From an uncultured Algibacter sp. (GTDB lineage Bacteria > Bacteroidota > Bacteroidia > Flavobacteriales > Flavobacteriaceae), in assembly GCF_963976535.1 (NCBI RefSeq), contig NZ_CAXBLF010000008.1, forward strand, positions 1,922-65,921: a stretch of 64,000 nt of DNA. Direction: 5' to 3'. A model generated the notes under the pieces. The model was not told where the DNA came from and made no database searches. It worked only from the letters and a program-made list of their open reading frames with translations. Position numbers and translations under genes: made by a program. Below are positions 10,455 to 48,218 of the stretch, in pieces (positions within the stretch are counted from its first letter, which is position 1; each line of letters starts with the position of its first letter).

Positions 10455-10480
10455 AGATTCCCGCTTTCGCGAGAATGACA
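10455..10480. repeat. Single REP arm agattcccgctttcgcgagaatgaca
   Basis: AGATT...AATGACA architecture shared with the arms at 30000, 30430, 30560 and 44267. Confidence 0.7.
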
Positions 10481-18128: not shown

Positions 18129-18201
18129 TGTCAATCTGAGCGCAGTCGAAGACATTGGAAATATCGTATTCAAAAGCATTTCGACTGCGCTCAATGTGAC
18201 A
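18129..18201. repeat. REP doublet (GAGCGCAGTCGA family)
   Basis: tgtcaatctgagcgcagtcgaagac ... catttcgactgcgctcaatgtgaca. Confidence 0.9.
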
Positions 18202-18232: not shown

Positions 18233-19579
18233 TTATCCAAAAATAGCTTTATAAATATCATTCCCATTTGCGAATAAAACTAAAGCAATTAATAAAAAGA
18301 ACCCCACCATTTGAGCGTATTCCATAAACTTATCTCCTGGCTTTCTTCCAGAGACCATTTCATACAACAAAAACACCACATGGCCACCATCTAATGCCGG
18401 TATTGGCAGTAGGTTTAAAACAGCTAACATGATGGATAAAAATGCTGTGATCCTCCAAAACACTTGCCAGCTCCAAAAACTAGGAAAGATATCGTAAATG
18501 GCTTTAAAACCTCCTACGCCTTTATAAGCGCCTGTACTTGGAGAAAAAATAGCGCCTAATTGATCCCAATATGAAATTAATTTATCTTTAGCCTTATTTA
18601 ATCCAACAGGAAAAGATTCAAAAAATCCATAATCCTTAACATCATATTTATAATATCCTAAAGCTTCTAATGTTGCTGGTGTTGAGCCTGATGCATAAAC
18701 CAAACCTAATTTACCTTCATCACTAATTTTTAATGGTAACTTTATTTTAGACCCATTTCTTATCACATTAACCGTAACTTCTTGTCCTTTAAATTTTTCT
18801 AAACCTAACTTAACTTCATCTGCATATTTAGTTTCAAAATCATTTATACCACTAATAATATCCCCTTTTTTTATACCACTAGATTTATTGTATGATGTAT
18901 CTGGAACTTTAACAATAATAAATGGCTCTCTTAAATCTATAAGCCCTTTTTCCTTTGAGTCCAATAATTGAGCTAAAAAATCTTCTGGCATGGTCACTGT
19001 AGACTGACTCCCATTTCGTTCTATAAGAATTTCTTTTCCGAATAAAACCTTCTCAGAAATTTCAGAAAATGTTTCAATCTTATCACCATCTACCGCTAAT
19101 ATTTTATCACCGGTAAGAAGACCTGCTTTAATTGCTACGGTATTTTCAATAGCTAAACCATCTTTAATATTTTCATTTGGTAGAAACGTATCTCCATAAA
19201 AATAACTCATCCCTATGTAAATGAAAATGGCTAATAAAAAATTAACCGTAACTCCACCCAACATGATAATTAAACGTTGCCATGCCGGTTTAGAACGAAA
19301 CTCCCATGGTTGCGGTTCTTGTGCCATTTGCTCGGTATCCATGCTTTCATCAATCATACCTGCAATTTTCACATAACCACCTAATGGCAACCAGCCAATA
19401 CCGTAAACGGTTTCACCAATCTTCTTTTTAAATAATGAAAACTTTATATCAAAAAACAAGTAAAATTTTTCTACTCTTGTTTTAAAAAGCTTTGCAGGGA
19501 TAAAATGCCCTAATTCGTGCAATACAATTAGCAACGAAAGACTTAGTAAAAATTGAGATATTTTTATAACAAACTCCAT
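18233..19579 (-). CDS. rseP: RIP metalloprotease RseP
   Basis: HELGH, LPLGGYVKIAGM, PDZ region, NLLPIPALDGGH. Confidence 0.95.
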   Translation of the reverse strand: MEFVIKISQFLLSLSLLIVLHELGHFIPAKLFKTRVEKFYLFFDIKFSLFKKKIGETVYGIGWLPLGGYVKIAGMIDESMDTEQMAQEPQPWEFRSKPAWQRLIIMLGGVTVNFLLAIFIYIGMSYFYGDTFLPNENIKDGLAIENTVAIKAGLLTGDKILAVDGDKIETFSEISEKVLFGKEILIERNGSQSTVTMPEDFLAQLLDSKEKGLIDLREPFIIVKVPDTSYNKSSGIKKGDIISGINDFETKYADEVKLGLEKFKGQEVTVNVIRNGSKIKLPLKISDEGKLGLVYASGSTPATLEALGYYKYDVKDYGFFESFPVGLNKAKDKLISYWDQLGAIFSPSTGAYKGVGGFKAIYDIFPSFWSWQVFWRITAFLSIMLAVLNLLPIPALDGGHVVFLLYEMVSGRKPGDKFMEYAQMVGFFLLIALVLFANGNDIYKAIFG

Positions 19580-26318: not shown

Positions 26319-26466
26319 ATTTGAAGCTATTCCTGCTATCCGCTGTATCTTTCTTGTGCTGAACTTGTTTCAGTATCTCATCAAGTGATTTGAATACAAG
26401 ATAGTACAAGTTTTAAATAAAATTTTGGAGTTGGCACAAAAAAGTATGCCGCTTCTATCAGGGCTA
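26319..26466 (-). repeat. Dispersed structured repeat (GATAGAAGCGGCAT...AAAGATACAGCGGATAG family) with a nested gtgctgaacttgtttcagtat palindrome
   Basis: Reverse-complement arms match 48053-48070 and 48162-48178. Confidence 0.65.
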
Positions 26467-26516
26467 GATTATCAGCCAAGGTCAGGTTTAAAGCAGACAA
26501 TTAGTGATAAACCTGC

Positions 26517-28747: not shown

Positions 28748-29900
28748 TGCCCAAATAGAAATACAACTCATTGCCAGTATAGTAGCAATTGCTTGTGCTA
28801 TTCCTGGTACGTTTTTAGTGCTCCGGAAAATGGCTATGATTAGTGACGCTATTAGTCATTCTATTTTGCCAGGTATTGTTATTGGTTTTTTTATTACACA
28901 AGATTTAAACTCACCATTGCTCATTCTACTTGCAGCCCTAACTGGAATTATTACTGTTGTTTTGGTTGAGTATATTCAAAAAACGGGCTTAGTAAAAGAA
29001 GATACCGCCATTGGTTTAGTATTCCCTATTTTGTTTAGTATTGGCGTTATCATGATCGCCAAAAACGCGAATGATGTCCATTTAGATGTGGATGCTGTTT
29101 TATTAGGCGAATTAGCTTTTGCGCCGTTTGATAGACTTATCGTTTCTGGAGTTGATATCGGACCAAAATCTCTATGGGTTATTGGAAGCATCTTGATTAT
29201 TACTATTGGTTTATTATTTGCTTTTTTCAAAGAATTAAAAATAAGCACATTTGATGCTGGTTTAGCAGCCTCTTTAGGGTTTTCGCCTGCTGTTATTCAT
29301 TACGGACTCATGACTGTATCATCTGTTACTACTGTAGGTGCTTTTGACGCTGTAGGAGCTATTTTAGTTGTCGCTTTAATGATATCACCAGCAGCCACAG
29401 CTTATTTACTTACTAACCAATTAAAACGTATGCTTATTTACGCCATTTGTTTTGGCGTTTTCAGTGCAATTTCGGGCTATTGGCTAGCCCATTGGTTAGA
29501 CGCTTCAATAGCCGGGTCTATAACCACCATGTTAGGGTTACTGTTTTTAGCAGTGTACTTATTTGCCCCAAGCAAAGGTGTTATAGCTGTAATGTATCGC
29601 GAAAAGCAACAACGTACAGAAGTCTCTTTACTAACCTTTTTATTACATTTAAAAAACCATACTGAAGAAAGTGAACGTCACGTTAATCACCTCAACGAAC
29701 ATATTAATTGGCAAAAAGTACGTTCTAAAACGGTTTTAGATTTAGCTTTAAAAAACAACATGATTCAAATTGATAAAAACATTGTGTCTTTAACTGAAAA
29801 AGGCGAAGATTTCACATCGCAAGCTATCGATTATATTATTACTAATGAAGACAGCAAAATTGAACACATAAAAGATGATTTCTTTTTATTTAGAGGGTAA
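28740..29900 (+). CDS. Mn/Zn ABC permease 2 with a C-terminal extension
   Basis: SDAISHSILPG, AFDAVGAILVVALMI; tail ending in VSLTEKG. Confidence 0.92.
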   Translation: MSSAQIEIQLIASIVAIACAIPGTFLVLRKMAMISDAISHSILPGIVIGFFITQDLNSPLLILLAALTGIITVVLVEYIQKTGLVKEDTAIGLVFPILFSIGVIMIAKNANDVHLDVDAVLLGELAFAPFDRLIVSGVDIGPKSLWVIGSILIITIGLLFAFFKELKISTFDAGLAASLGFSPAVIHYGLMTVSSVTTVGAFDAVGAILVVALMISPAATAYLLTNQLKRMLIYAICFGVFSAISGYWLAHWLDASIAGSITTMLGLLFLAVYLFAPSKGVIAVMYREKQQRTEVSLLTFLLHLKNHTEESERHVNHLNEHINWQKVRSKTVLDLALKNNMIQIDKNIVSLTEKGEDFTSQAIDYIITNEDSKIEHIKDDFFLFRG

Positions 29901-29901
29901 T

Positions 29902-30592
29902 TGTTATTCAGAGCATAACGAAGAATCTACTTTACAAAAATTTATCAAATTGCAAGTATAAAACAATAAGTGTATATATTTTTTGATGATGAGACTTTAA
30001 GATTCATTAGTCGTACCTCCATCTGAATGACATTCGATTTATTTTCCTTTGAATGACAATGTCATTCAGAGCGGAGCGAAGAACCTCTTTTATAAAAAGT
30101 TTATTAAATTAACAGTATGAAAACAATTGGCAATCATAATTATTACGTTTACATGCTTACTAATAAAAGTAAAACGGTTTTATATACTGGTGTGACTAAT
30201 AATTTGAAAGATCGTCTTTATTTTCATAAAAATCCACTTCCATTTTCTAAAGCATTTACATCGAAATATAAATGTTATTATTTAGTTTATTATGAGCATT
30301 TTTTTCAAATTGAAAACGCAATTAAAAGAGAGAAACAGATAAAAGGTAAGAGTAGAGCAAAAAAAGACGCTTTAATTTTCGATTTTAATCCTTCGTGGTC
30401 CTTTTTAAATGAAAATATATAATTTTTCAAGATTCTTCAGTCGTTCCTCCTTCTGAATGACATTACGGTTTCTTTTCTTTGAATAGCAATGTCATTCAGA
30501 GGGTAGCGAAGAATCTTTTTTAATAATATTTTACTAAATTCACATTATTAGAGCTAATAAGATTCTTCAGTCGTACCTCCTTCTGAATGACA
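29902..30592. mobile_element. Array of three palindrome-pair (REPIN-like) units, the middle one carrying a GIY-YIG gene
   Basis: A arms at 29902, 30060 and 30490 (TGTCATTCAGAG..GCGAAGAATCT); B arms at 30000, 30430 and 30560 (AGATTCTTCAGTCG..CCTCCTTCTGAATGACA). Confidence 0.8.
30117..30422 (+). CDS. Stand-alone GIY-YIG nuclease (UPF0213/YhbQ-like)
   Basis: YYVYML...LYTGVT...DRLYFH...LVYYE...AIKREKQIK...NPSW. Confidence 0.93.
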   Translation: MKTIGNHNYYVYMLTNKSKTVLYTGVTNNLKDRLYFHKNPLPFSKAFTSKYKCYYLVYYEHFFQIENAIKREKQIKGKSRAKKDALIFDFNPSWSFLNENI

Positions 30593-30611
30593 AAAAGCTT
30601 CATATCAAAAT

Positions 30612-30971
30612 ATGGCACAACACAACGAACTCGGTAAAAAAGGCGAACAATTAGCAGTTGATTTTCTTCTGAAAAACAACTACGATATTGTGGAGCGCAA
30701 TTACCGTTTTGATAAAGCCGAAGTAGATATCATAGCCAAAAAAGATAATATTCTAGCCATTATTGAAGTAAAAACACGTTCGACTACAGATTTTGGTGAT
30801 CCACAAGATTTTGTAAAGCCTAAACAAATTCAACGCTTAGTAAAGGCGGTTGATGAATATGTAACTGTAAATGATTTAGATGTAGAAGTGCGATTTGATA
30901 TTATTGCTATTGTAAAAGAAGGTAAAGCCTTTAATATTGAGCATCTAGAAAATGCTTTCTATCATTTTTAA
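30612..30971 (+). CDS. YraN family (UPF0102) protein
   Basis: GKKGEQLA, EVDIIAK, IEVKTRS, RFDIIAI. Confidence 0.93.
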   Translation: MAQHNELGKKGEQLAVDFLLKNNYDIVERNYRFDKAEVDIIAKKDNILAIIEVKTRSTTDFGDPQDFVKPKQIQRLVKAVDEYVTVNDLDVEVRFDIIAIVKEGKAFNIEHLENAFYHF

Positions 30972-30975
30972 TAGC

Positions 30976-32316
30976 CTATTCTTCTTTTTCTTCTTTCTCA
31001 AAATATTTTTTCAAGGCATCAAAATCTACGGGTTTTGAAATAATTTTTTTATCGGTATCCAATATGAAATAAGTTGGTGTTGATGTAACGCCGTAGGCAT
31101 CTCCAATTTCATTATCCCATTTCCCTTCTCCATAAACATGGATAAATTCTGGATAGCTATACGTTAAATCTTTCCATTTATAAGGCTCATCTTCTAAACC
31201 AATAGCCACCACTTTTACTTTATCTTTTTCCAGAGATTTGATGAATGTTTGTAGCTGAGGCACTTCATCCAAACAATGTGAACAGGTGCTACTCCAAAAT
31301 ACTATAATGTAGTTTTCTGCACCTTCTAATTGGGTTAACTTCTTTTCAACTAATTTGTCCTTTTCTTTTATTTCAATATTAAAATCTGGTGCTACATTCC
31401 CATTTGAAATGTTTTTACATAAGATTAAAGCATGTAAAAGTTCTTGATCATTTAAAGCCACAGCCACATCCATTAGATAATTTTCAGCAATATAATTTGC
31501 AATAGATTCGAAACCTAAATCAGACATTTGTTGCCATAAATCAAATAATAAAATACGCTGTACTTCTTTAGGAGCATCTTTCATGTAGCTATAAACCACA
31601 TCAATATTTTCTTTGTAATTTTCTAATTCATCTTTAGAATCAGAAGACATTCCAAAAACATAATTTAGCATACGTTCTTCTAAAAAATTAGAACTTTGAA
31701 GTATTGGATTATTAAAATTAACATGATCAAAATAATGCTTTTTTAAATTATTTATGTATGTTTTTACATCTTCAACTTCTTCGGGAATATATGGCTTGTT
31801 TGCTTTGATAAACTCTAGTGCTCTACTATCTTTAGCGACTTTTTCAAAATTTTCTTGGGTTTCTCTCTGCGTTTTAAAAATGGTTTTTAATGCTGTAGTA
31901 TCTTTACTTTCTTGACTAAAATAATTACCAATACTTTGGGTTACCATAGACATGCTATTGGTGTAAGAAGCTAATAATTTATTTTCGGTAGATTTTTTAA
32001 ATTCTACACCCGTTTCAGAATTAAACGTGAGTTCGATATCTTCCTTACCGTCATAAATAATATCAAAATTATAATCTTCTTGTGGCACCGCATAAACCAA
32101 ACGATACATCCCTTTTGTATTTGTTGAATCTAGTTTAAACTCAAAACTCCCATCTTCTTGTAATTCGGCGTTTGAAACATAGTCTGATATGGTAGGAGTC
32201 ACTTTATATAATAATGCAAAATTATAATCTTTTGCTGGAGAAAATGTTCCTTTTATGGTGTTTTGCGCTAGTAAGATACTAGGCCATAAAGCAATTAAAA
32301 AAAGTATATGTTTCAC
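30976..32316 (-). CDS. Exported TlpA/AhpC-TSA thioredoxin-domain protein
   Basis: Signal peptide; FWSSTCSHCLDEVP. Confidence 0.85.
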   Translation of the reverse strand: MKHILFLIALWPSILLAQNTIKGTFSPAKDYNFALLYKVTPTISDYVSNAELQEDGSFEFKLDSTNTKGMYRLVYAVPQEDYNFDIIYDGKEDIELTFNSETGVEFKKSTENKLLASYTNSMSMVTQSIGNYFSQESKDTTALKTIFKTQRETQENFEKVAKDSRALEFIKANKPYIPEEVEDVKTYINNLKKHYFDHVNFNNPILQSSNFLEERMLNYVFGMSSDSKDELENYKENIDVVYSYMKDAPKEVQRILLFDLWQQMSDLGFESIANYIAENYLMDVAVALNDQELLHALILCKNISNGNVAPDFNIEIKEKDKLVEKKLTQLEGAENYIIVFWSSTCSHCLDEVPQLQTFIKSLEKDKVKVVAIGLEDEPYKWKDLTYSYPEFIHVYGEGKWDNEIGDAYGVTSTPTYFILDTDKKIISKPVDFDALKKYFEKEEKEE

Positions 32317-32375
32317 AATAATAATTTATTTTAAATTTTCCCTTCAAGGGCATGGTAATTAGTCAAAAACAATAA

Positions 32376-35300
32376 TCAAGCCACAATAGGTTGTAAAGTC
32401 TCTAATGCTTGTTTTACAGATTTAATATTCTCAAAAGTTAGCATTAATCTTAAACCGCTTCGAGTTTGTTTCTCTTTCATTTTACAAGTGCTAGGATTAG
32501 TTTGTACAAATTGCAACACTTTGGTAAAATTAGCACTTTGATAAAACCTACTTTGTTGATCGTTTATAAAATAACCAATCAACTTACCTTGTTTCATAAT
32601 AATTTTTTCAAACCCAATTTTAGTAGCTAACCACTTTATTTGGACACTATTTAATAAATCGGTCACTTGTTTTGGTAATTCTCCAAAACGGTCGATTAAA
32701 TCCATTTCAAAGATATGCAATTCTTCTTCTGTTTTTAAGTTATTAAGCTGCGTGTATAAATTAAGTCGTTCAGCAATATTATTCACATAATTATCTGGAA
32801 ATAAAAGCTCAAAGTCAGTATCAATAGTTACATCTTTAACGTAAACTTTGTTAGCTTCATCTTCATTATATAAATCTTTAAACTCATTTTCTTTTAACTC
32901 CTCGATAGCTTCATTCAATATTTTTTGATAGGTATCAAAACCTATTTCATTTATAAAACCACTTTGTTCTCCGCCCAATAAATCGCCAGCACCACGAATT
33001 TCTAAATCTTTCATCGCGATATTGAATCCGCTTCCCAATTCCGTGAATTGCTCTAAAGCTGTAATACGTTTTCTAGCATCATCAGTCATGGCCGAATACT
33101 CTGGTGTAATAAAATAACAGAATGCTTTTTTGTTACTCCGACCTACTCTACCGCGCATTTGATGCAAATCGCTTAATCCAAAATTATTGGCATTATTGAT
33201 GAAAATGGTATTAGCATTTGGTACATCAAGTCCGCTTTCTACAATTGTCGTACTTACCAATACATCAAAACCGCCATCCATAAACGAAAGCATAAGTTGC
33301 TCTAATTTTTTACCTTCCATTTGCCCATGACCGATACCTATTTTTGCATCGGGCACCAAACGTTGAATCATACCTGCAACTTCTTTAATATTTTCAATAC
33401 GATTATGTATAAAGAAAATTTGCCCACCACGTTGTATTTCGTAGCTGATGGCATCACGAATAGTTTCTTCGCTAAAACGAATTACGTGACTTTCAATCGG
33501 GTATCGATTTGGAGGTGGTGTTGTAATGACTGATAAATCTCGAGCAGCCATTAAGCTAAATTGTAACGTTCTCGGGATTGGTGTAGCGGTTAACGTTAGC
33601 ACATCCACATTATCTTTTAAAGTCTTAAGTTTTTCTTTTACGGCTACGCCAAATTTTTGTTCTTCATCAACAATCAACAAGCCTAAATCTTTAAACTTAA
33701 CATTTTTATTAACGAGTTGATGTGTGCCAATAAGGATGTCCACTTTCCCCTGTTCTAAACCTTCTAAAGTTTCTCGTTTCTCTTTTGCTGTCCTAAAACG
33801 GTTGACGTAATCTACCGTAACAGGAAAATCTTTTAAACGCTCTCTAAACGTTCTAGAATGTTGATATGCTAAAATGGTAGTTGGCACCAAAATAGCAACT
33901 TGCTTCCCATTATCTACCGCCTTAAACGCTGCACGAATTGCTACTTCGGTTTTACCAAAACCTACATCGCCACAAATCAAACGATCCATGGGGCGTTCAC
34001 TTTCCATGTCTGCTTTTATATCAGCTGTTGCCGTAGTTTGGTCTGGAGTGTCTTCGTAAATAAAAGAGGCTTCCAATTCGTGTTGCATATAACTATCAGG
34101 ATTATACTGATAGCCTTTTTCGGTTTTACGTTTCGCGTAAAGTTTTATTAAGTTGAAAGCCACATGTTTTACACGTGCCTTTGTTTTTTGTTTTAGGGTT
34201 TTCCAAGCATTACTTCCCAATTTGTAAATCTTGGGTGGTTTGCCATCTTTACCATTAAACTTGGTGATTTTATGTAGCGAATGAATACTTAAATACAGCA
34301 CATCGCGCTCGCCATAAACCAATTTAATGGCTTCTTGTTTTTTACCTTCTACATCTATTTTTTGAAGTCCGCCAAATCGCCCAATACCATGATCGATGTG
34401 TGTTACGTAATCGCCAATATCTAAATTTGTGAGTTCCTTTAATGTTATGGCTTGCTTTTTAGCATACCCGTTTTTAAGATGAAATTTATGATAACGCTCG
34501 AAAATTTGATGATCGGTGTAACACACTATTTTATTATCGTGGTCTGTAAAACCTTGATGTAGGGATAAAATAATGGTTTGATATTCTTTGACATCGAGAT
34601 GTGAATCATCAAAAATATCATGAAAACGTTTTGCCTGTTGTTCGCTTACGCATGCAATGTAGTTTGTATAACCGTTTTCGCTATTGGTATTTAGATCTTC
34701 GATTAATAGATTGAATTGTTTATTGAATGCTGGTTGCGGTGTGGTGTGGTGTTCAATAGTTTGAGATTCTTCGCTTCGCTCTGAATGACAAAAGACACTC
34801 TGTGTCCCAAACTCTATAACTGAAAAGTCGAGTAACTGCCTTTTTAATACTGTTGAATTACAAAATAGTTCGTTAGGTTCGGCATGTTTAATATCTGTTG
34901 AAAGTGTTTTAAAAGCGTCTTGTGCTTTATCATAAAAATCATCAATTCTAGAAAAAAGTAAATCGGCATTTTTTAAACACACTACTGTTTTTTGAGCAAT
35001 ATATTTCAGAAAACTTTGTCGGTTTTCTTGTAATAATTTATTCGCTACATTAGGAATAATGCTGATTTTTTTAATCTGCTCGATGGAAAGCTGTGTTTCT
35101 ACATCAAAGGTTCTGATACTGTCCACTTCATCACCAAAAAACTCGATTCGATAAGGCTCGTCATGTGAAAATGAAAACACATCTACTATGCCGCCTCGCA
35201 CTGAAAACTCTCCAGGTTCTGTAACAAAATCGACACGCTTGAATTGATATTCAAACAAAACTTCGTTTACAAAATCAATAGACACCTTATCATTGACACC

Positions 35301-35735
35301 AATTTTTAGTGTGTGACGTTCTAGCTCTTTTCTAGTAACTACCTGTTCAAAAAGGGCATCGGGATAGGTAACAATAATTGCTGGTTTTTTTTGAGAATTT
35401 ATACGGTTTAAAACCTCGGCGCGTAATAACACATTGGCGTTATCGGTTTCTTCTATTTCATAAGGTCTGCGGTAACTGCCAGGATAGAACAGCACATCTT
35501 TGTCATTGCAAAGTTGTTCTAAATCGTTTAGGTAATGTGCCGCTTCTTCTTTATCGTTAAACACCAACAAAAATGGTTTTTCAGCTGCTTTAAAAACTGT
35601 TGAAATAACAAAAGAAAAAGAAGATCCTACAAGTCCTTTTAAATGTGTTTTTGTTCCAGTTTGGGCAATAGCATTCCGCAGATTTTGCGTTTGCAAAGTC
35701 TGTAAATAGGTTTTCGAGAGAATGGTTTTACTCAC
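32376..35735 (-). CDS. mfd: Transcription-repair coupling factor
   Basis: CarD-like HIDHGIGRF, CGDVGFGKT, DEEQKFG, TATPIPRT, QMRGRVGR. Confidence 0.97.
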   Translation of the reverse strand: MSKTILSKTYLQTLQTQNLRNAIAQTGTKTHLKGLVGSSFSFVISTVFKAAEKPFLLVFNDKEEAAHYLNDLEQLCNDKDVLFYPGSYRRPYEIEETDNANVLLRAEVLNRINSQKKPAIIVTYPDALFEQVVTRKELERHTLKIGVNDKVSIDFVNEVLFEYQFKRVDFVTEPGEFSVRGGIVDVFSFSHDEPYRIEFFGDEVDSIRTFDVETQLSIEQIKKISIIPNVANKLLQENRQSFLKYIAQKTVVCLKNADLLFSRIDDFYDKAQDAFKTLSTDIKHAEPNELFCNSTVLKRQLLDFSVIEFGTQSVFCHSERSEESQTIEHHTTPQPAFNKQFNLLIEDLNTNSENGYTNYIACVSEQQAKRFHDIFDDSHLDVKEYQTIILSLHQGFTDHDNKIVCYTDHQIFERYHKFHLKNGYAKKQAITLKELTNLDIGDYVTHIDHGIGRFGGLQKIDVEGKKQEAIKLVYGERDVLYLSIHSLHKITKFNGKDGKPPKIYKLGSNAWKTLKQKTKARVKHVAFNLIKLYAKRKTEKGYQYNPDSYMQHELEASFIYEDTPDQTTATADIKADMESERPMDRLICGDVGFGKTEVAIRAAFKAVDNGKQVAILVPTTILAYQHSRTFRERLKDFPVTVDYVNRFRTAKEKRETLEGLEQGKVDILIGTHQLVNKNVKFKDLGLLIVDEEQKFGVAVKEKLKTLKDNVDVLTLTATPIPRTLQFSLMAARDLSVITTPPPNRYPIESHVIRFSEETIRDAISYEIQRGGQIFFIHNRIENIKEVAGMIQRLVPDAKIGIGHGQMEGKKLEQLMLSFMDGGFDVLVSTTIVESGLDVPNANTIFINNANNFGLSDLHQMRGRVGRSNKKAFCYFITPEYSAMTDDARKRITALEQFTELGSGFNIAMKDLEIRGAGDLLGGEQSGFINEIGFDTYQKILNEAIEELKENEFKDLYNEDEANKVYVKDVTIDTDFELLFPDNYVNNIAERLNLYTQLNNLKTEEELHIFEMDLIDRFGELPKQVTDLLNSVQIKWLATKIGFEKIIMKQGKLIGYFINDQQSRFYQSANFTKVLQFVQTNPSTCKMKEKQTRSGLRLMLTFENIKSVKQALETLQPIVA
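34764..34790 (-). repeat. REP A-arm in frame inside mfd (CHSERSEES)
   Basis: Reverse complement tgtcattcagagcgaagcgaagaatct matches the 30060 and 30490 arms at 25/27. Confidence 0.9.
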
Positions 35736-35863
35736 GTAATTTTTGTTTTTACGGTTGCAAAGATACGGTTTAGAATTATTTTTGGGATGATTTGATTTGA
35801 ATTTGCTATTCTTAGAGTAATATTAATTTTCAGAACTAAAAAGGTGTGGTTTAGCTCTTCTCT

Positions 35864-35940
35864 CGCATTAGGGATTGAACGGTCTGTTTGATCCAGATGA
35901 TAATCGGGAGAGTGGTGCCCGACCCTTGTGGTAATGGCCA
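35864..35940 (+). ncRNA. Structured Flavobacterial repeat/ncRNA candidate (Flavo-1-like)
   Basis: gcattagggattgaacgg...gcccgacccttgtggtaatggcc shares both ends with 48045-48218; family assignment is from recall, not computed. Confidence 0.4.
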
Positions 35941-36011
35941 AAAAATTAAAATTTCGGATTAAATTCTTAAAAAAAATATGTAGGTTTGTAGCACTAAAAA
36001 AACAAAGATAT

Positions 36012-36443
36012 ATGTCGTTTTCAGATTTATTTGATAGTGGGTTTAAAAAGCGTAATGAGAACCATTTTGCAGCAATTGTTCGTGTGGCTATGGCCGATGG
36101 TGTAATTACTAATGATGAAAAGCAGTTTTTGGATAGGTTAGCGCGAAACTTAAACATTAGCGAAGGGGATTATAAAGTGATTTTGAAAGATTATCAGTCG
36201 CATCCTATAAACCCGCCTATATCCTACGACCATAGATTAGAGCGTTTATATGATTTAGTGCGTATGATACATGTTGATACCATAAAAGGTGACCCAGAAA
36301 TGCTGCTTTTAAAGAAAATTGGGGTTGGTCTTGGTTTTCATGCTGTAAACGTAAAGTATATTGTTGATAAGGCTTTAACACTAGTTGGTAACGGTGTGGA
36401 TTTAGACACTTTTATTGAAGAAATAAAGCATATGAATAGATAA
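36012..36443 (+). CDS. TerB family (tellurite-resistance-like) protein
   Basis: MSFSDLFDSG, AAIVRVAMADG.I...E...L; start chosen at 36012. Confidence 0.8.
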   Translation: MSFSDLFDSGFKKRNENHFAAIVRVAMADGVITNDEKQFLDRLARNLNISEGDYKVILKDYQSHPINPPISYDHRLERLYDLVRMIHVDTIKGDPEMLLLKKIGVGLGFHAVNVKYIVDKALTLVGNGVDLDTFIEEIKHMNR

Positions 36444-36466
36444 AAGGATCTGTTTTAAAACATTAT

Positions 36467-36654
36467 TGTCCGATAAAAGAATCAAGACCGCTGCGCTAAT
36501 AGAATATAGAATTAAGACTTGATTTTAACGCATTGATAATCAATCTACAATAGATTTATCATTTCAGAAAGCTTTTAATTTTTTACTTGTTGTAAAAGTA
36601 AGGGGCATATCTCAAAAAAAACTTTTAGACTATACCCAATCTATCGTTCGGACT
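36467..36654 (+). mobile_element. Degenerate MITE-like element, copy 1
   Basis: First 38 nt match 50733-50770 at 34/38; right end ttcggact. Confidence 0.5.
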
Positions 36655-36726
36655 ATCTTACAAATTTTAATCGAACACCATTGGATTTAAAACTATAAAA
36701 AATGCGAACTTGTTGGTTCGCATTTT

Positions 36727-38880
36727 TTATTTATGTAATTTTAATTGAATACGCTTACGTGGAATATCTACCTCTAACACTTTTACAATAATTTGTTGAT
36801 GCAAACTCACGTGTTCGTTTACATCTTTTACAAATGAATCAGATAAGTTTGATACATGAATTAATCCACTTTCTTTGATACCAACATCTACAAAACATCC
36901 AAAGTTTGTTATGTTATTGACGATTCCTGGAAGTAGCTGTCCTTCGCGTAAGTCGTTTATCGTTTTTATATTTTGATTGAAGGTGAATACTTTAGCTTGC
37001 TCTTTAATATCCAAACCAGGTTTTTCAAGTTCTTTAATGATATCTTCAAGCGTTAGCAGCCCAACTGAATCTGTGCAATATTTTTTTAAATCAATCTTTT
37101 GAAGTACATCTTTATTTCCAATTAAATCATGAACTGATTTACCCAAATCTTTAGCCATTTTAGTTACTATCCCATAACTTTCAGGATGTACTGCAGAATC
37201 ATCCAATGGGTTTTTAGCACCCTTAATTCTCAAAAATGCAGCGCCTTGCTCAAAGGCTTTTTCGCCTAAACGTGGTACATTTTTAATCTCTTTTCTAGAT
37301 GTGAATACGCCATTTTCATTTCTGTAATTGAAAATATTTTCGGCTAGTTTTGAACCAATACCTGAAACAGAGCTTAGCAACGGTTTACTTGCTGTATTGA
37401 TGTTTACACCAACAGCATTTACACAATTTTCTACCACAACATCCAATTGCTTTTGAAGTTTGGTTTGATCTACATCATGCTGGTATTGACCAACGCCAAT
37501 AGATTTTGCATCAATTTTTACCAATTCGGCTAGCGGATCTTGTAAACGACGCCCAATAGAAACTGAACCCCGAACCGTAACATCATAATTTGGAAATTCT
37601 TCTCTAGCAATTTTTGAAGCTGAATAAATACTAGCTCCTGCTTCACTCACCACAAACACTTTTACATCGTTTTTAAAATGCACTTTTCTAATCAAAGCTT
37701 CTGTTTCTCTTGAAGCGGTGCCATTTCCAATGGCTATGGCTTCAATTTTATAAGCATCGGCTAACGAGCCTATTTTTTTCATAGCTCCGATGCTATCGCT
37801 TTTTGGTGGATGCGGATAAATGGTTTCGTTATATTTTAATTGCCCTTGAGCGTCTAAACATACCACTTTGCAACCTGTTCTAAATCCTGGGTCTATGGCT
37901 AAAACGCGTTTTTCACCTAATGGCGACCCTAATAATAATTGTTTTAGGTTTTTAGCAAATACGATAATTGCAGATTCATCGGCTTTTTCTTTTGCAATTT
38001 GCAACGCTTCATTACTTAAGGACGGTAATAATAATCGTTTGTAAGCATCTTTAATGGCAAGTTCTATTTGTTCCCTGCCAGCAGGCAGGCTAGGCGCGCA
38101 AGCGTTATTACCCCGATAGCTATCGGGGCGAATCATTCTACTTTCAATTTTATCTAAAGCTTTATCATTATCTATCTCAATTTTAACACGAATAAACCCT
38201 TCACTTTCGGCTCTTAAAATAGCTAACAATCGGTGTGATGGAATTCTGCTTAAGCGCTCTTCCCAATCAAAATAATCTCTAAACTTTTGCGCTTTTTCAT
38301 CCGCTGCCTTTGTTTTTATCACTTTCGTGGAAATCATAGCGAAACGCTCTAATTGATGACGAATATTATTTCTTATATCGGTTCGTTCATTAATCCATTC
38401 GGCAATAATGTGTCGCGCCCCTTCTAAAGTGTCTTCAACTGAATTTATCTCGCCTTTCACATATTTAAATGCTATGGATTCGATATCGTTAACATTTTGG
38501 CTCATTATGATTTTAGCGAGTGGTTCTAATCCATTTTGGCGTGCTTTTTCTGCTTTGGTTTTTCTGCTTTTCTTGTATGGTAAGTATAAATCTTCAAGTG
38601 TGGTTATATCTTGAGTAGCTTCTATTTTTTGTTTTAATTCTGGAGTTAAAACAGCTTGTTCTTCTAAAGCTTTTAAAATGGCTTTTTTTCGTTTTTCTAA
38701 AGCTTCAAATTGCTCTTTAAGCTTAACGATTTCTCCTATTTGAACCTCATCTAAATTTCCCGTGCGTTCTTTTCTGTAACGCGAAATAAAAGGGATGGTG
38801 CAATCTTCATTAAGTAATTCAATCGTGTTTTTTACCGATTGTTTAGGTAGTTTCGTATTTGAAATTATATAATCTATCAT
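36727..38880 (-). CDS. tex: Tex family RNA-binding protein
   Basis: TIPFISRYRKE, DPGFRTGCK, GRRLQDPLAELVK, HhH and S1 domains. Confidence 0.95.
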   Translation of the reverse strand: MIDYIISNTKLPKQSVKNTIELLNEDCTIPFISRYRKERTGNLDEVQIGEIVKLKEQFEALEKRKKAILKALEEQAVLTPELKQKIEATQDITTLEDLYLPYKKSRKTKAEKARQNGLEPLAKIIMSQNVNDIESIAFKYVKGEINSVEDTLEGARHIIAEWINERTDIRNNIRHQLERFAMISTKVIKTKAADEKAQKFRDYFDWEERLSRIPSHRLLAILRAESEGFIRVKIEIDNDKALDKIESRMIRPDSYRGNNACAPSLPAGREQIELAIKDAYKRLLLPSLSNEALQIAKEKADESAIIVFAKNLKQLLLGSPLGEKRVLAIDPGFRTGCKVVCLDAQGQLKYNETIYPHPPKSDSIGAMKKIGSLADAYKIEAIAIGNGTASRETEALIRKVHFKNDVKVFVVSEAGASIYSASKIAREEFPNYDVTVRGSVSIGRRLQDPLAELVKIDAKSIGVGQYQHDVDQTKLQKQLDVVVENCVNAVGVNINTASKPLLSSVSGIGSKLAENIFNYRNENGVFTSRKEIKNVPRLGEKAFEQGAAFLRIKGAKNPLDDSAVHPESYGIVTKMAKDLGKSVHDLIGNKDVLQKIDLKKYCTDSVGLLTLEDIIKELEKPGLDIKEQAKVFTFNQNIKTINDLREGQLLPGIVNNITNFGCFVDVGIKESGLIHVSNLSDSFVKDVNEHVSLHQQIIVKVLEVDIPRKRIQLKLHK
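38074..38128 (-). repeat. Two palindromes in frame inside tex (RPDSYRG and SLPAGR)
   Basis: ccccgatagctatcgggg (38111-38128) and cctgccagcaggcagg (38074-38089). Confidence 0.88.
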
Positions 38881-38896
38881 TCTTTTTCAATTAAAA

Positions 38897-38929
38897 AGAC
38901 CTGTCAGGTTTTAAAAACCTGACAGGTCT
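38897..38929. repeat. Palindrome AGACCTGTCAGGTTTT-AAAACCTGACAGGTCT
   Basis: 16-bp arms; split halves recur at 60325-60344 and 60544-60563. Confidence 0.88.
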
Positions 38930-38960
38930 AATTTATAGCTTAATTTAACTTTACAAAAAC

Positions 38961-39122
38961 TTAAGCCACTTTTTTAACCAAATCAAAACAAGGGCATTTT
39001 TCACAACGCTTGTTCTCACCTTTTTTAAATTTTTTACAGCAACTGTCTTTTACTTTTTTAGGCAATTCAATACCTAATTTTCGTAATTTTTTAATTGCTT
39101 TCTTTTTCTTCTTTTTGCCCAA
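38961..39122 (-). CDS. 53-aa basic Cys-rich small protein (TTG start)
   Basis: MGKKKKKKAIKKLRKLGIELPKKVKDSCCKKFKKGENKRCEKCPCFDLVKKVA; has its own -7 element TATTTTTG at 39151-39158. Confidence 0.7.
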   Translation of the reverse strand: MGKKKKKKAIKKLRKLGIELPKKVKDSCCKKFKKGENKRCEKCPCFDLVKKVA

Positions 39123-39150
39123 AACAGAATGTAATATTCAAATCGTTGTG

Positions 39151-39183
39151 CAAAAATAGGTTATTTTTATTAAATCTAAATAA
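39151..39183 (-). promoter_or_regulatory. -7 element plus Fur-like operator
   Basis: Reverse complement of 39161-39183 is ttatttagatttaataaaaataa. Confidence 0.6.
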
Positions 39184-39198
39184 GCTTAAATGTTAAAA

Positions 39199-39717
39199 TT
39201 ATTGGGGCGTATTTGCAGCTGCCGTAGTTACTGTTAAATTTTCAATATCTCTATCAAATAAATATAGCCCGCCTTTATCATCACCAATCATATTTATTTT
39301 ATCAAGAATGGTTCGCGCTACAGCTTCTTCTTCAATTTGCTCTGCAACGTACCACTGTAAAAAGTTGTGCGATGCATAGTCTTTTTCTTGAAGACTGATG
39401 TGCACTAATTCGTTTATACTTTGAGACACATAAACTTCATGTTCAAACAGTTTTTCGAACATTTCTTTAATTGATTTGAATGTCACATTTGGTGCAGCTA
39501 ATTGCGAAATTTGCGCATGACCTCCGCGCTCGTTCACAAACTTTATTAATTTTAACATGTGTTCACGTTCTTCATCAGATTGTGCATACATAAAATTAGA
39601 AACGCCTTCTAAACCTTTAACCTCTGCCCAACATGCCATGGCTAAATAAATTTGAGAAGATTCTGCTTCTATTCGAATTTGATTATTTAGTGCGTCTTCT
39701 ATGATTTTTGATAACAT
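39199..39717 (-). CDS. ftnA: Non-haem ferritin
   Basis: Ferroxidase residues in EAESSQIY, EEREH and EQIEEEA; start MLSKIIE at 39717. Confidence 0.93.
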   Translation of the reverse strand: MLSKIIEDALNNQIRIEAESSQIYLAMACWAEVKGLEGVSNFMYAQSDEEREHMLKLIKFVNERGGHAQISQLAAPNVTFKSIKEMFEKLFEHEVYVSQSINELVHISLQEKDYASHNFLQWYVAEQIEEEAVARTILDKINMIGDDKGGLYLFDRDIENLTVTTAAANTPQ

Positions 39718-39861
39718 AATATACCTTTTTTGTAAAGTTACAGATTTCTTCAACTCCATAATAAGACATTCTCACTTTTTTAAAAACAAAATAGCATTTA
39801 AATGAAATTAACTGCTTTATATTGCGTTAACAATAAACTTATTATGTAAAATTTATTCAAT

Positions 39862-40185
39862 ATGAAAATTTTGTTTAACTGCTTATTCTTATTTTTTATT
39901 TGTAATGTGTCTTTTTCACAAGAACAGGTAGTGAAAAACAATCTTGAAGAAACAACAGTATTCAAATTTTATCCTAATCCAGTACAAGATGAGCTTTTTG
40001 TTTTAGGAACAAATAAGATTAAAAGTATTGAATTGATTAACGTTTTAGGCAAACGTGTCGCTATTTACCATTTTAATAAAAGTATTATAAAAATGGATGT
40101 TTCTGATTTAAAAAGTGGTATATATTTAATACAAGCTACAGATGAAAACAATAAGCAAGAAACTAAAAGGTTGGTTGTTAAATAG
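39862..40185 (+). CDS. Small protein consisting of a signal peptide and a T9SS CTD
   Basis: FYPNPVQD...NVLGKRV...LKSGIYLI...KRLVVK. Confidence 0.85.
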   Translation: MKILFNCLFLFFICNVSFSQEQVVKNNLEETTVFKFYPNPVQDELFVLGTNKIKSIELINVLGKRVAIYHFNKSIIKMDVSDLKSGIYLIQATDENNKQETKRLVVK

Positions 40186-42047: not shown

Positions 42048-44114
42048 TTAACTAATACTTAACCCATTGCCAACACTGGCATCATCAGGATTTACAAACA
42101 CTAATTTACCTTCTGCCGTTTCAGTCATTAAAATCATACCTTGGCTTTCAACACCTCGTAACGCTCTTGGAGCTAAATTCACTAATACAGTTACACGTTT
42201 TCCAACAACTTCTTCCGCATTAAAACTTTCAGCAATACCAGACACAATGGTTCTTGTATCAATACCTGTATCAATTTTAAGTTTTAATAGCTTTTTGGTT
42301 TTTGGCATTTTTTCGGCTTCTAAAATGGTGCCTACTCGAACATCTAACTTTGTGAAATCTTCAAAAGTGATGGTGTCTTTTTGAGGTTCTAATGTTTTGT
42401 TGGCCGCTTCGTTTGCCTTTTTACTTGCTTCTAATTTATCGAGTTGTTTTTGGATGGTTTCATCTTCAATTTTTGAGAATAATAATTCTGCTTTTCCTAT
42501 TTTGTGTCCTGCTGGCAATAAAGTTTCTTTTGTGCTTACTTCATTCCAAGACGTTTCGACTGCGCTCAACGTGACATTAAGAATACCTTTCAGTTTTGTT
42601 GATGTAAACGGTAAAAAAGGTTCACATAAAGTCGCTAATGCCGAAGCTATTTGAACCGACACATACATAATAGTTTGTGTTCTGGCTTCATCAACTTTAA
42701 TGACTTTCCAAGGCTCTTCATCTGCTAAATATTTATTACCCAAACGTGCTAAATTCATTAATTCTTGTCCCGCTTCTCTAAAACGATAACGCTCTATTGA
42801 ACTTGCAATGACATCTGGATACGCTTTTATTTTAGCTAAAATTTCGGCATCAACTTGGGTGAAATTACTCGGAGCCGGCACTATACCTTCATAATATTTG
42901 TTGGTAAGCACGACTACTCGGTTTATAAAGTTCCCGAAAATAGCTACTAACTCATTATTATTTCTAGCTTGAAAATCTTTCCAAGTAAAATCGGTATCCT
43001 TCGTTTCCGGCGCATTAGCATTTAATGCATAACGCAACACATCTTGCTGACCTGGAAATTCTTTTAAATACTCAGGTAACCAAACCGCCCAATTCTTAGA
43101 CGTGGATAATTTATTGCCTTCTAAATTTAAAAACTCATTTGCAGGCACATTTTCTGGAAGGATATAACTGCCTTCGGCTTTTAACATGGCTGGAAAAATA
43201 ATACAGTGAAATACAATATTATCTTTTCCTATAAAGTGAACTAGTTTAGTGTCTTTATCTTTCCAATACGGTTCCCAGTCTTTTCCAACGCGGTCTGCCC
43301 ATTCTTTGGTTGAAGAAATGTAACCAATAGGCGCATCAAACCAAACGTATAGCACTTTGCCTTCTCCTCCTTCTGCTGGCACAGGAATTCCCCAATCTAA
43401 ATCTCTGGTTACCGCTCGTGGACGTAGCCCATCATCAATCCAAGATTTACATTGTCCGTAAACATTGGGTTTCCAATCTTTTTTATGACCTTTAAGAATC
43501 CATTCTTTTAAAAACGCTTCATGTTTATCTAAAGGTAAAAACCAGTGTTTTGTTTGCTTTAAAGTCGGTACATTTCCTGTAATTGCCGATTTTGGATTAA
43601 TTAAATCTGTAGCATTATGGCTCGTTCCACAGTTTTCACATTGGTCGCCATAACTTTCTTCATTACCACATTTAGGGCAAGTTCCCACAACAAAACGATC
43701 TGCTAAAAACTGATTTGCTTCTTCATCATACAACTGTTCTGTAGTTTCTTCTATAAATTCACCTTTTTTATCTAAAGTTTTAAAAAAATCTGAAGCTGTT
43801 TTATGATGAATAGGCGCCGATGTACGTGAATAATTATCGAAAGTTATTCCAAAATCTTCAAACGATTTCTTAATAATCGCATGATATTTATCAACTACAT
43901 CTTGAGGCGATACACCTTCCTTTTTTGCCTTAATAGTAATTGGCACACCATGTTCGTCACTTCCACCAATAAATGCTACATCATTCCCTGTTAAGCGTAA
44001 ATAGCGTGCATAAATATCCGCAGGCACATAAACCCCTGCTAAATGCCCAATGTGAATAGGTCCGTTTGTATATGGAAGTGCTGTGGTGATTGTATATCGT
44101 TTTGGCTTGCTCAT
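42048..44114 (-). CDS. metG: Methionine--tRNA ligase
   Basis: [13 protein letters not shown], Zn knuckle, KLSTS, C-terminal tRNA-binding domain. Confidence 0.97.
42552..42576 (-). repeat. REP arm in frame inside metG (VTLSAVET)
   Basis: cgtttcgactgcgctcaacgtgaca matches 18177-18201 at 23/25. Confidence 0.88.
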
Positions 44115-47968: not shown

Positions 47969-48044
47969 GTAATTTTTTTGTTTTTAATACGTCCAAATAT
48001 ACTATTGTTAGTTGAATTTTTTATCCTTTTGTTACAATTGTACT

Positions 48045-48218
48045 GCGTTAAGGATAGAAGTGGCATCCTTTATGCGAAGAATTGATACTATATATTTTCT
48101 TTATAAATAAAAATTATTTAATAGTTAGAGATCCCGAAGCAAGTTCGGGACTGCTTCGCAGAAAGATATAACGGATAGCCTGACCTTATAACGCCATAAG
48201 CGTTTTAAGGGAACGCCC
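48045..48218 (+). ncRNA. Structured Flavobacterial repeat/ncRNA candidate (Flavo-1-like) carrying internal inserts
   Basis: gcgttaaggatagaagtggcatcc...aaagatataacggatagcctgacc...gggaacgccc; nested atcccgaagcaagttcggga. Confidence 0.45.

Follow-up and report, generated by a model that had tools for sequence, protein, structure and literature searches.

A TGTC-headed palindromic repeat in frame in mfd of an uncultured Algibacter sp., and repeat units in the same Mfd loop of other Flavobacteriaceae

Repetitive extragenic palindromic (REP) sequences tagged with CGTC were defined by Di Nocera in 2013; their tag is often TGTC, their stems open with A-T pairs, and they form head-to-head and tail-to-tail (HH/TT) dimers (PMC3733652). 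They are present in Bacteroidetes among other phyla, with 'no dedicated transposase'; in-frame copies were described in uvrA/B/C/D, recBCD, polA, dnaE2 and tRNA synthetase genes, Mfd not being named (PMC3733652). In Neisseria, the NTS repeat CGTCATTCCCGCGMAVGCGGGAATCYRG (dRS3, a CGTC-1 REP) was reported by Chenal in 2025 to be bound as single-stranded DNA (ssDNA) by SsnA, a GIY-YIG protein of 94 amino acids (aa) that cuts a few nucleotides (nt) upstream of the head; the three bases preceding the palindrome are important for cutting, and the C that follows it is important for binding (PMC11893778). Thousands of SsnA homologues (cd10448) are flanked by Ssn-related motifs (SRM), and the NTS-ssnA-NTS layout resembles an insertion sequence (PMC11893778). 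The present analysis concerns a 27-nt unit, apparently of this class, that is translated inside mfd, the gene of the transcription-repair coupling factor, in an uncultured Algibacter sp. The window is the whole stretch of 64,000 nt that was analysed (NCBI RefSeq assembly GCF_963976535.1, contig NZ_CAXBLF010000008.1, positions 1,922 to 65,921 of the forward strand), and coordinates are window positions.

The repeat unit in mfd and its relation to described classes

The unit, its host gene and the nuclease region with the related units are as follows:

34764-34790, minus strand: solo R-type repeat unit TGTCATTCAGAGCGAAGCGAAGAATCT, in sense on the mfd coding strand, read as CHSERSEES (Mfd residues 316-324).
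32376-35735, minus strand: mfd, intact, 1119 aa, with Pfam domains and PDB matches of Mfd.
30117-30422, plus strand: Ssn-like single-domain GIY-YIG nuclease gene, 101 aa (PF01541, E 3.8e-15, residues 8-82).
30059-30085, plus strand: R-type unit, left end of the head-out cassette 30059-30462 enclosing the nuclease gene.
30429-30462, minus strand: L-type unit of family D3, TGTCATTCAGAAGGAGGAACGACTGAAGAATCTT on the minus strand, right end of the cassette.
30489-30592: gene-less head-out R/L dimer (R 30489-30515, plus; L 30559-30592, minus), forming one long hairpin.
29903-30032: second head-out pair (degenerate R 29903-29927, plus; L 29999-30032, minus).
30046-30059: partial head adjoining the second head-out pair.

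With up to 3 mismatches allowed, the 25-nt core of the Mfd unit, GTCATTCAGAGCGAAGCGAAGAATC, matched the window at three places, one exact (34765-34789, minus strand) and two with 2 mismatches each (30061-30085 and 30491-30515, plus strand); 100 dinucleotide-preserving shuffles gave 0 matches. Over the full 27 nt the Mfd unit was identical at 25/27 positions to each of the two nuclease-flanking copies, and this direct comparison bears out the similarity from which the original prediction had started. The length of 27 nt preserves the mfd frame. Also as predicted, the unit reads C-H-S-E-R-S-E-E-S, then QTIEHHTTPQP. It lies within an intact open reading frame (ORF) that carries the full Mfd set of UvrB_inter, CarD_TRCF_RID, DEAD, Helicase_C and TRCF domains (Pfam). 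All three sense frames of the unit were free of stops, and two of the three antisense frames contained TGA.

Three parts make up the unit. The head TGTC is unpaired; a short palindrome, ATTC...GAAT, encloses a GCGAAGC mini-hairpin core; and a C follows the palindrome directly. GCGAAGC is a very stable DNA mini-hairpin, and is flanked in the unit by positions that could form sheared G.A pairs; the energy model credits neither. No other GTCATTCAGA-like head was found in mfd or within ~4 kb of the unit. As ssDNA the solo Mfd-type R unit folded with a free energy (dG) of -2.0 kcal/mol (z +0.3 against shuffles), compared with a z of -5.5 for Neisseria NTS, and the R/L dimer 30489-30592 folded into one long hairpin (dG -22 kcal/mol, z -6.4; 0/200 shuffles as good). 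Given the weak fold of the solo unit, the earlier description of it as a lone arm without a partner is a fair one. A separate palindrome, GGGACAC-AGA-GTGTCTT, lies just upstream of the unit (34792-34808, minus strand) and encodes G-T-Q-S-V-F; in L252 its middle pair is changed on both sides (ACGC...GCGT), it counted as one terminator-like site where 0.5 were expected, and it may follow simply from the TQSV codons.

An AlphaFold2 model of Mfd residues 1-512 (54-sequence alignment; mean pLDDT 70, pTM 0.68) had a strand at 305-309, a coil at 310-324 with pLDDT <50 at 319-322, strands at 325-328 and 331-333, and a helix at 341-353. By this model, peptide 316-324 would form the tip of the beta-hairpin loop that joins the UvrB-like module to the next Mfd domain. 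The position was taken from the model because sequence mapping onto E. coli Mfd failed across the linker (phmmer, 20-sequence profile; alignment only to ~231 and from ~394-419 onward).

Near the nuclease gene the units were of two types, R-type of 27 nt (plus strand; TGTCATTCAGAGSGNAGCGAAGAAYCT) and L-type of 33 nt (minus strand; TGTCATTCAGAAGGAGGWACGACTGAAGAATCTT), both starting with TGTCATTCAGA and ending with GAAGAATCT, with different middles. By head position the region resolves into three successive head-out elements (29903-30032, 30059-30462 and 30489-30592). Repeat copies bracket the GIY-YIG ORF on both sides within 500 bp, with further units on each side, and the segment 29990-30100 folded with a dG of -15.5 (z -3.1). 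With a single GIY-YIG domain and 101 aa, the ORF falls within the size of Ssn proteins (<150 aa). When its product was compared by tblastn with 120 loci from a canonical NTS scan of genomes, one gene matched, in a Sphingorhabdus metagenome-assembled genome (MAG; L339; E 1e-12, 38% identity over 87 aa), and was bracketed by canonical NTS, plus upstream and minus downstream, in the same head-out layout as the window cassette. The scan's single N. lactamica locus was without an ssnA gene. Against NCBIfam the window protein gave no match, and its one PDB match, of 21.8 bits, was a protein unrelated to it.

Compared with NTS, the Mfd unit corresponds near base for base (TGTC-ATTC-AGAGCG-AA-GCGAAG-AAT-C vs CGTC-ATTC-CCGCG-MAV-GCGGG-AAT-C), sharing the head (C/T)GTCAT, the palindrome ATTC...GAAT and the closing C, with 25 nt from GTC to C here and 24 nt in the NTS core. 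The unpaired HGTCWY of an SRM head occurs directly before the palindrome as TGTCAT (34790-34785, minus strand), the C follows right after it (...GAAT-C), and each is kept in 6/6 orthologous carriers. Both systems have units that bracket a ~100-aa single-domain GIY-YIG gene with heads outward, both spread across phyla, and a near-canonical NTS unit is also found in the window. They differ in the inner stem, CCGCG/GCGGG in NTS vs AGAGCG/CGAAG with A.A and G.A mismatches here, in the pairing of two unlike units (27 and 33 nt) as arms, and in the Flavobacteriaceae host; moreover, intragenic copies of NTS are rare (2% in N. meningitidis), whereas in the window 2 of the ~12 units are in frame in genes.

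Likeness to CGTC-tagged REPs extends to the unpaired TGTC tag at one end, the A-T pairs at stem positions 1-2, the dimers, the in-frame copies in DNA repair proteins and tRNA synthetases, and the lack of a linked tyrosine transposase within 29000-40000. In place of the stem of that class (8-9 bp, A-T pairs at positions 1-2, loop of 4-5 nt), the Mfd unit pairs at positions 1-2 (AT/AT) and has three non-Watson-Crick pairs in the 9-position ATTCAGAGC/GCGAAGAAT and a 3-nt loop, which leaves it outside the four described families with their perfect 8-9 bp stems and 4-5 nt loops. Mfd is absent from the published targets, and published repeat hits at one site are limited to recB in two Xanthomonas species (PMC3733652), compared with one loop in dozens of species here. 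Rickettsia palindromic elements (RPE), of which RPE-4 and RPE-6 are themselves CGTC-type, are likewise short palindromic repeats tolerated in frame in surface parts of housekeeping proteins (PMC3733652); the window unit is much shorter (9 aa), and it occurs in free-living marine bacteria, not in obligate intracellular hosts. The REPIN/RAYT system resembles the present one in its head-out or inverted doublets that form long hairpins, its single-copy enzyme gene bracketed by the repeat, its solo units as remnants and a biology based on ssDNA. Its GTAG tag and flanked IS200-like HUH tyrosine transposase are replaced here by a (C/T)GTC tag, TGTC in the Mfd unit, and a GIY-YIG nuclease, and mobility by Ssn is hypothetical. 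No Rfam family covered the repeat (gathering threshold over the whole window; E <=1 within 24000-50000).

Judged by its sequence, the repeat belongs to a published class, the CGTC/TGTC-tagged REPs, now Ssn-related motifs. The original prediction had presented the unit as directly tying the nuclease-flanking repeat to dispersal into a core repair gene; that tie is not new in either half, since the association of GIY-YIG genes with such repeats (PMC11893778) and in-frame CGTC REPs in repair genes (published in 2013; PMC3733652) had both been described, and the Mfd case adds another example. Taken singly, it adds one case to the short palindromic repeats that repair proteins tolerate in frame, here beside a member of a nuclease family that was described in 2025. 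Of more interest is that, across Flavobacteriaceae, one loop of Mfd and one of MetRS are occupied by repeats time and again, with fast turnover and with the sequence conserved.

Repeat units in the Mfd loop of other Flavobacteriaceae

The linker between the conserved ..EFG.. strand and I.FNT.PQP.FNKQF was compared among 133 distinct Flavobacteriaceae Mfd. Measured from P..LF to PQP it ranged from 31 to 65 residues, with a mode of 34-35 (54/133), 41 in the window and 42-65 in 34 orthologs. The extra residues were repeat units read in frame, as singles or dimers of at least 4 variants and in all three sense frames:

CHSERSEES-type: the window, L125 (Hyunsoonleella flava), L227, L240, L252 (Formosa maritima) and L236 (Gilvirhabdus).
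Related HSERSEK forms: Tenacibaculum.
VIASE..KQS...SQAPRND dimers: L121, L123, L130, L207, L261, P0121 and P0124.
HPELVSGS...ILKQVQN dimers: L122, L193, L199 and L209-like forms.
VTSSAVEM...LDCARDD: L151, L238 and L251.
VTERSRS: Flagellimonas and some Winogradskyella.

At the DNA level the loop inserts were GTCAT/GTCAC-headed palindromes, with outward heads in the dimers. Carriers were interleaved with non-carriers among close relatives (L240 vs L248, L125 vs L220, L121 vs L212), and Winogradskyella alone had four types of loop insert. Since the heads fall at different codons and all three sense frames are used, several independent events are needed. Decayed look-alikes of the unit occurred in the linkers of L143 (AATCATTTAGAAGAAAACAAAGCTCCT), L134/L228 (GTCATGACGAACGCAGGCGAAACATCT) and P0128 (GHSGQGEES), and those of L134/L228 share the downstream CAAACWATYGA with the window. 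Neither a target-site duplication nor a clean empty site could be recovered at the Mfd linker, because the non-carrier linkers are too diverged. A strict canonical-hairpin rule (GTC, stem >=6, loop, C) was tried as a census and dropped, as it found few loop inserts and gave ~8 hits per shuffled window. In P0131 a repeat-derived peptide, PFDFAQDRP, is nested within a decayed CHSER-type unit, and at its junction the linker of L232 (a Gelidibacter MAG) reads AGTCAT-A-AATCT, which would fit a unit that lost its inner part and kept head and tail.

Enrichment was estimated in 1.54 Mb around mfd from 80 species (10-kb flanks), in which the 140-nt linker zone makes up 0.73% of the DNA. Units of the GTCWY...GAGCGNAGNCGAR (TCGAG-core) type numbered 18, with 7/18 in the linker zone and 0 in shuffles, an enrichment of ~50-fold for lineages that are not all independent and at a site chosen because of the finding. 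The CHSER-type variant (<=4 substitutions) had 4 copies in the 80 mfd loci, 4/4 in the linker.

The six CHSER-type carriers, i.e. the window and five other lineages, had the identical junction ..TTY|TGTCAT...AATCT|, so that the event is not confined to the window genome; many other variants fill the loop elsewhere. Among the six, unit identity was 22-27/27 (mean 0.91), with L240 identical to the window at 27/27, and fourfold-degenerate sites over 270 upstream codons were 0.30-0.45 identical (mean 0.36), i.e. saturated. GTC and the final C were invariant in 6/6, and the changes lay in the middle of the unit, at positions where the intergenic copies differ as well. The closest relative found (P0121/P0122, 93% aa identity; contig L407, 89% nt identity, 56/74 fourfold sites identical) has a different head-out dimer at the Mfd site, CGTCATTGCTAGTGAAACGTCGCAATC ... 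(reverse complement) CGTCATTACGAGAAGCTTGCGATGT, whose head lies three codons deeper in the linker with 8 extra nt ahead.

In these orthologs the Mfd loop is a strong hot spot, where such repeats land or are retained again and again across Flavobacteriaceae. The same small loop of this essential-pathway protein holds repeats in dozens of species, with a turnover faster than 11% nucleotide divergence, and the comparison points to a content that turns over quickly while the present units are kept near the family consensus. Unit identities of 22-27/27 despite saturated silent sites do not fit neutral inheritance, and neutral vertical descent of an old insert is excluded by this difference and by the swapped dimer in L407. 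The readings left are that units insert time after time at nearly one and the same nucleotide, that an old copy is overwritten again and again from other units, or that the DNA sequence is under selection. The pattern of units 81-100% identical across genera, hard to get from random insertion plus drift, bears on how CGTC-type REPs and Ssn-related motifs spread and stay uniform, and on the Ssn nuclease as a driver. For annotation, the peptides CHSERSEES, VIASEAKQS, VTSSAVEMS and HPELVSGS in Bacteroidota proteins are repeat-derived.

Explanations weighed for the Mfd unit

The preferred reading, with a probability of about 0.8, is that the Mfd 27-mer is a solo unit of the Ssn-associated repeat, recently placed or refreshed and neutral for Mfd. 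By homology with the Neisseria enzyme, the 30117 protein would bind ssDNA hairpins and make its cut a few bases 5' of the head; the recognised orientation would be the one on the mfd coding (non-template) strand, where the unit keeps the positions needed for Ssn binding and cutting. The Mfd copy would have been placed or refreshed recently by the ssDNA process that spreads the repeats, either through transposition of the unit or through copying from another unit induced by an Ssn nick; such nicks might drive insertion or copying. The head-out dimers and the head-out gene cassette share ends, which would fit a non-autonomous/autonomous pair as in REPIN/RAYT. The unit persists with the frame kept, with no stop on the sense strand and in a disordered loop that links two beta-strands ahead of the next Mfd domain, and is most likely without effect on Mfd. 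That it arrived by repeated near-site-specific insertion into the loop, which the preferred reading would accommodate, has a little less than an even chance.

Several observations weigh against this reading. The published SRM pattern, HGTCWYN(0-2)YYVSBRHN(0-5)WNVSBRGN(0-2)RNCYNB, had 0 matches in the window, with a script that does find the Neisseria NTS; the mismatched inner stem makes the unit miss this pattern and leaves it a weak hairpin alone. By nearest-neighbour DNA parameters the solo hairpin does not rise above shuffles, and as a self-sufficient Ssn site the unit is an unproven candidate. The ORF 30117-30422 is a putative Ssn/cd10448 member, the evidence from sequence being indirect and consisting of the match to the Sphingorhabdus gene bracketed by canonical NTS; the published threshold for the family is a blastp E below 1e-10 to N. 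meningitidis SsnA. The role of Ssn as mover of the repeats is hypothetical. Random dispersal with tolerance leaves the same variant at the same junction in six lineages unexplained, four carriers had no second unit copy within ~10 kb of mfd, and in L267 the variant flanking ssn differs from the variant in the Mfd loop. The prediction that loop variant and ssn-flanking variant agree was thus true in the window and false in L267. Within 10 kb of mfd an ssn homologue was found only in the window and L267, plus two weak matches; local hopping from an adjacent ssn gene was rejected as a general cause on account of this rarity.

The claim of dispersal into the repair gene is upheld in part by the different dimer at the site in L407 and by the window unit being the variant that flanks the genome's own nuclease gene. 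Conservation of the segment in genomes lacking the repeat had been named as evidence that would speak against dispersal; on this point the ortholog alignment is ambiguous, with the unit present in five other lineages and the four carriers just mentioned lacking a nearby second copy.

The first alternative places an old orthologous insert early in the Flavobacteriaceae clade and has it repeatedly overwritten by nick-induced copying from other units. The variant seen in a lineage would then be the one now current there, and only decayed remnants would be left where the system has been lost. The identical junction in six lineages, the decayed look-alikes at the same place in L143, L134/L228 and P0128, and unit identity far above that of neutral sites would follow from it. 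It does not sit well with heads that start at different codons and in all three frames, nor with the many close relatives that have a minimal linker and no trace of a unit, nor with the mismatch of variants in L267, and it is regarded as rather unlikely. A more specific claim, that the loop 305-309/325-328 is a specifically targeted or actively maintained Ssn-repeat site throughout Flavobacteriaceae, with a second one in MetRS, is likewise only tentative; under it, repeats would either enter the loop repeatedly at nearly one nucleotide or an old copy would be rewritten continually from other genomic units. If true, the filled, empty, decayed and swapped states of the loop would form a natural series for reading the mechanism of mobility or conversion, and would give a means to test Ssn as the missing mobilising enzyme of CGTC-REP/SRM.

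Selection for a role in mfd, as an acidic serine-rich linker peptide or as an mRNA or DNA hairpin tuning expression, would account for 5/8 unit substitutions among the six carriers being synonymous and for the conservation of the unit but not of neighbouring linker codons. Most orthologs are without the peptide or have unrelated ones, the closest relative has a different insert, and substitutions fell at loop positions that are also variable among intergenic copies; furthermore, no terminator- or promoter-like signal was significant for the Mfd unit, the solo RNA or DNA hairpin is weak, and the AlphaFold2 model shows a low-confidence loop. Such a role is improbable. Chance resemblance or an assembly artefact has a probability close to nil given the 0 matches in 100 shuffles, the 1119-aa product in six independent metagenome contigs of the same species, and the presence of the unit in the Mfd of isolates, Formosa maritima and Hyunsoonleella flava among them. 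Contigs from four marine metagenome runs also crossed the Mfd unit without indels or gaps, the loose ends at 34748-34793 being other repeat copies; this check of unit presence or absence rests on assembler contigs and is blind to rare variants.

Further copies and neighbouring features

The window holds ~12 repeat units of four variants. One of them, GTCACGTTGAGCGCAGTCGAAACGTC at 42550-42575 (minus strand), is in frame in MetRS as VTLSAVETS (ORF 42048-44114; NF001100, E 2.8e-261). At the aligned place MetRS relatives had VTSSAVE(M/T)S, CHSERDSEA, ILRFALND... (an antisense reading of the 25-mer), longer dimers or a shorter loop, and the MetRS loop looks like a second hot spot of the Mfd-loop kind.

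The exact 25-mer GTCATTCAGAGCGAAGCGAAGAATC was found in >120 stretches of species-representative genomes. Isolates among them include Tannerella, Hymenobacter, Pedobacter, Bacteroides, Flavivirga and Mesonia; MAGs include Clostridia, Chloroflexota, Binatia, Lentisphaeria, Verrucomicrobiota, Acidobacteriota and delta-proteobacteria, the non-Bacteroidota all being MAGs in which contamination is possible. The 25-mer, which is AT-rich, was frequent as head-out homodimers 45-70 nt apart. Homologues of the window nuclease occurred in 6 of the 25-mer loci (L066, L072, L081, L020, L059, L035), and in these six, from other phyla, 8/10 exact 25-mers were <=300 nt from the homologue. The exact 25-mer was also in frame in a MurB-like protein (L118 around 2675; ..DSSCHSERSEESFPP..) and in an alpha-2-macroglobulin-like protein of a Winogradskyella MAG (L049 around 2094; ..GNVIQSEAKNLED..).

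The near-canonical NTS unit of the window is intergenic, at 10456-10479 (minus strand; GTCATTCTCGCGAAAGCGGGAATC); as TGTCATTCTCGCGAAAGCGGGAATC it is one base from the Neisseria NTS core, in a Flavobacteriaceae genome. Two more intergenic units, with a GAGCGCAGTCGAA core, lie at 844-864 (GTCATTTTGAGCGCAGTCGAA) and 18180-18200 (GTCACATTGAGCGCAGTCGAA), both on the minus strand, the latter just downstream of ORF 18233-19579.

The gene that immediately follows the Ssn-like gene and its repeats on the downstream side encodes a UPF0102/YraN-like nuclease (30612-30971, plus strand; PF02021, E 1.9e-25). The gene order ABC-3, ABC-3, ssn, UPF0102, thioredoxin-like, mfd was the same in six metagenome contigs. 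Flavo-1 RNA (RF01705), an element distinct from the repeat, matched at 26325-26469 (minus strand) and 48042-48189 (plus strand) with 56.3 and 43.0 bits (threshold 42), and in both matches 65-70 nt are inserted where the model has its terminal loop.

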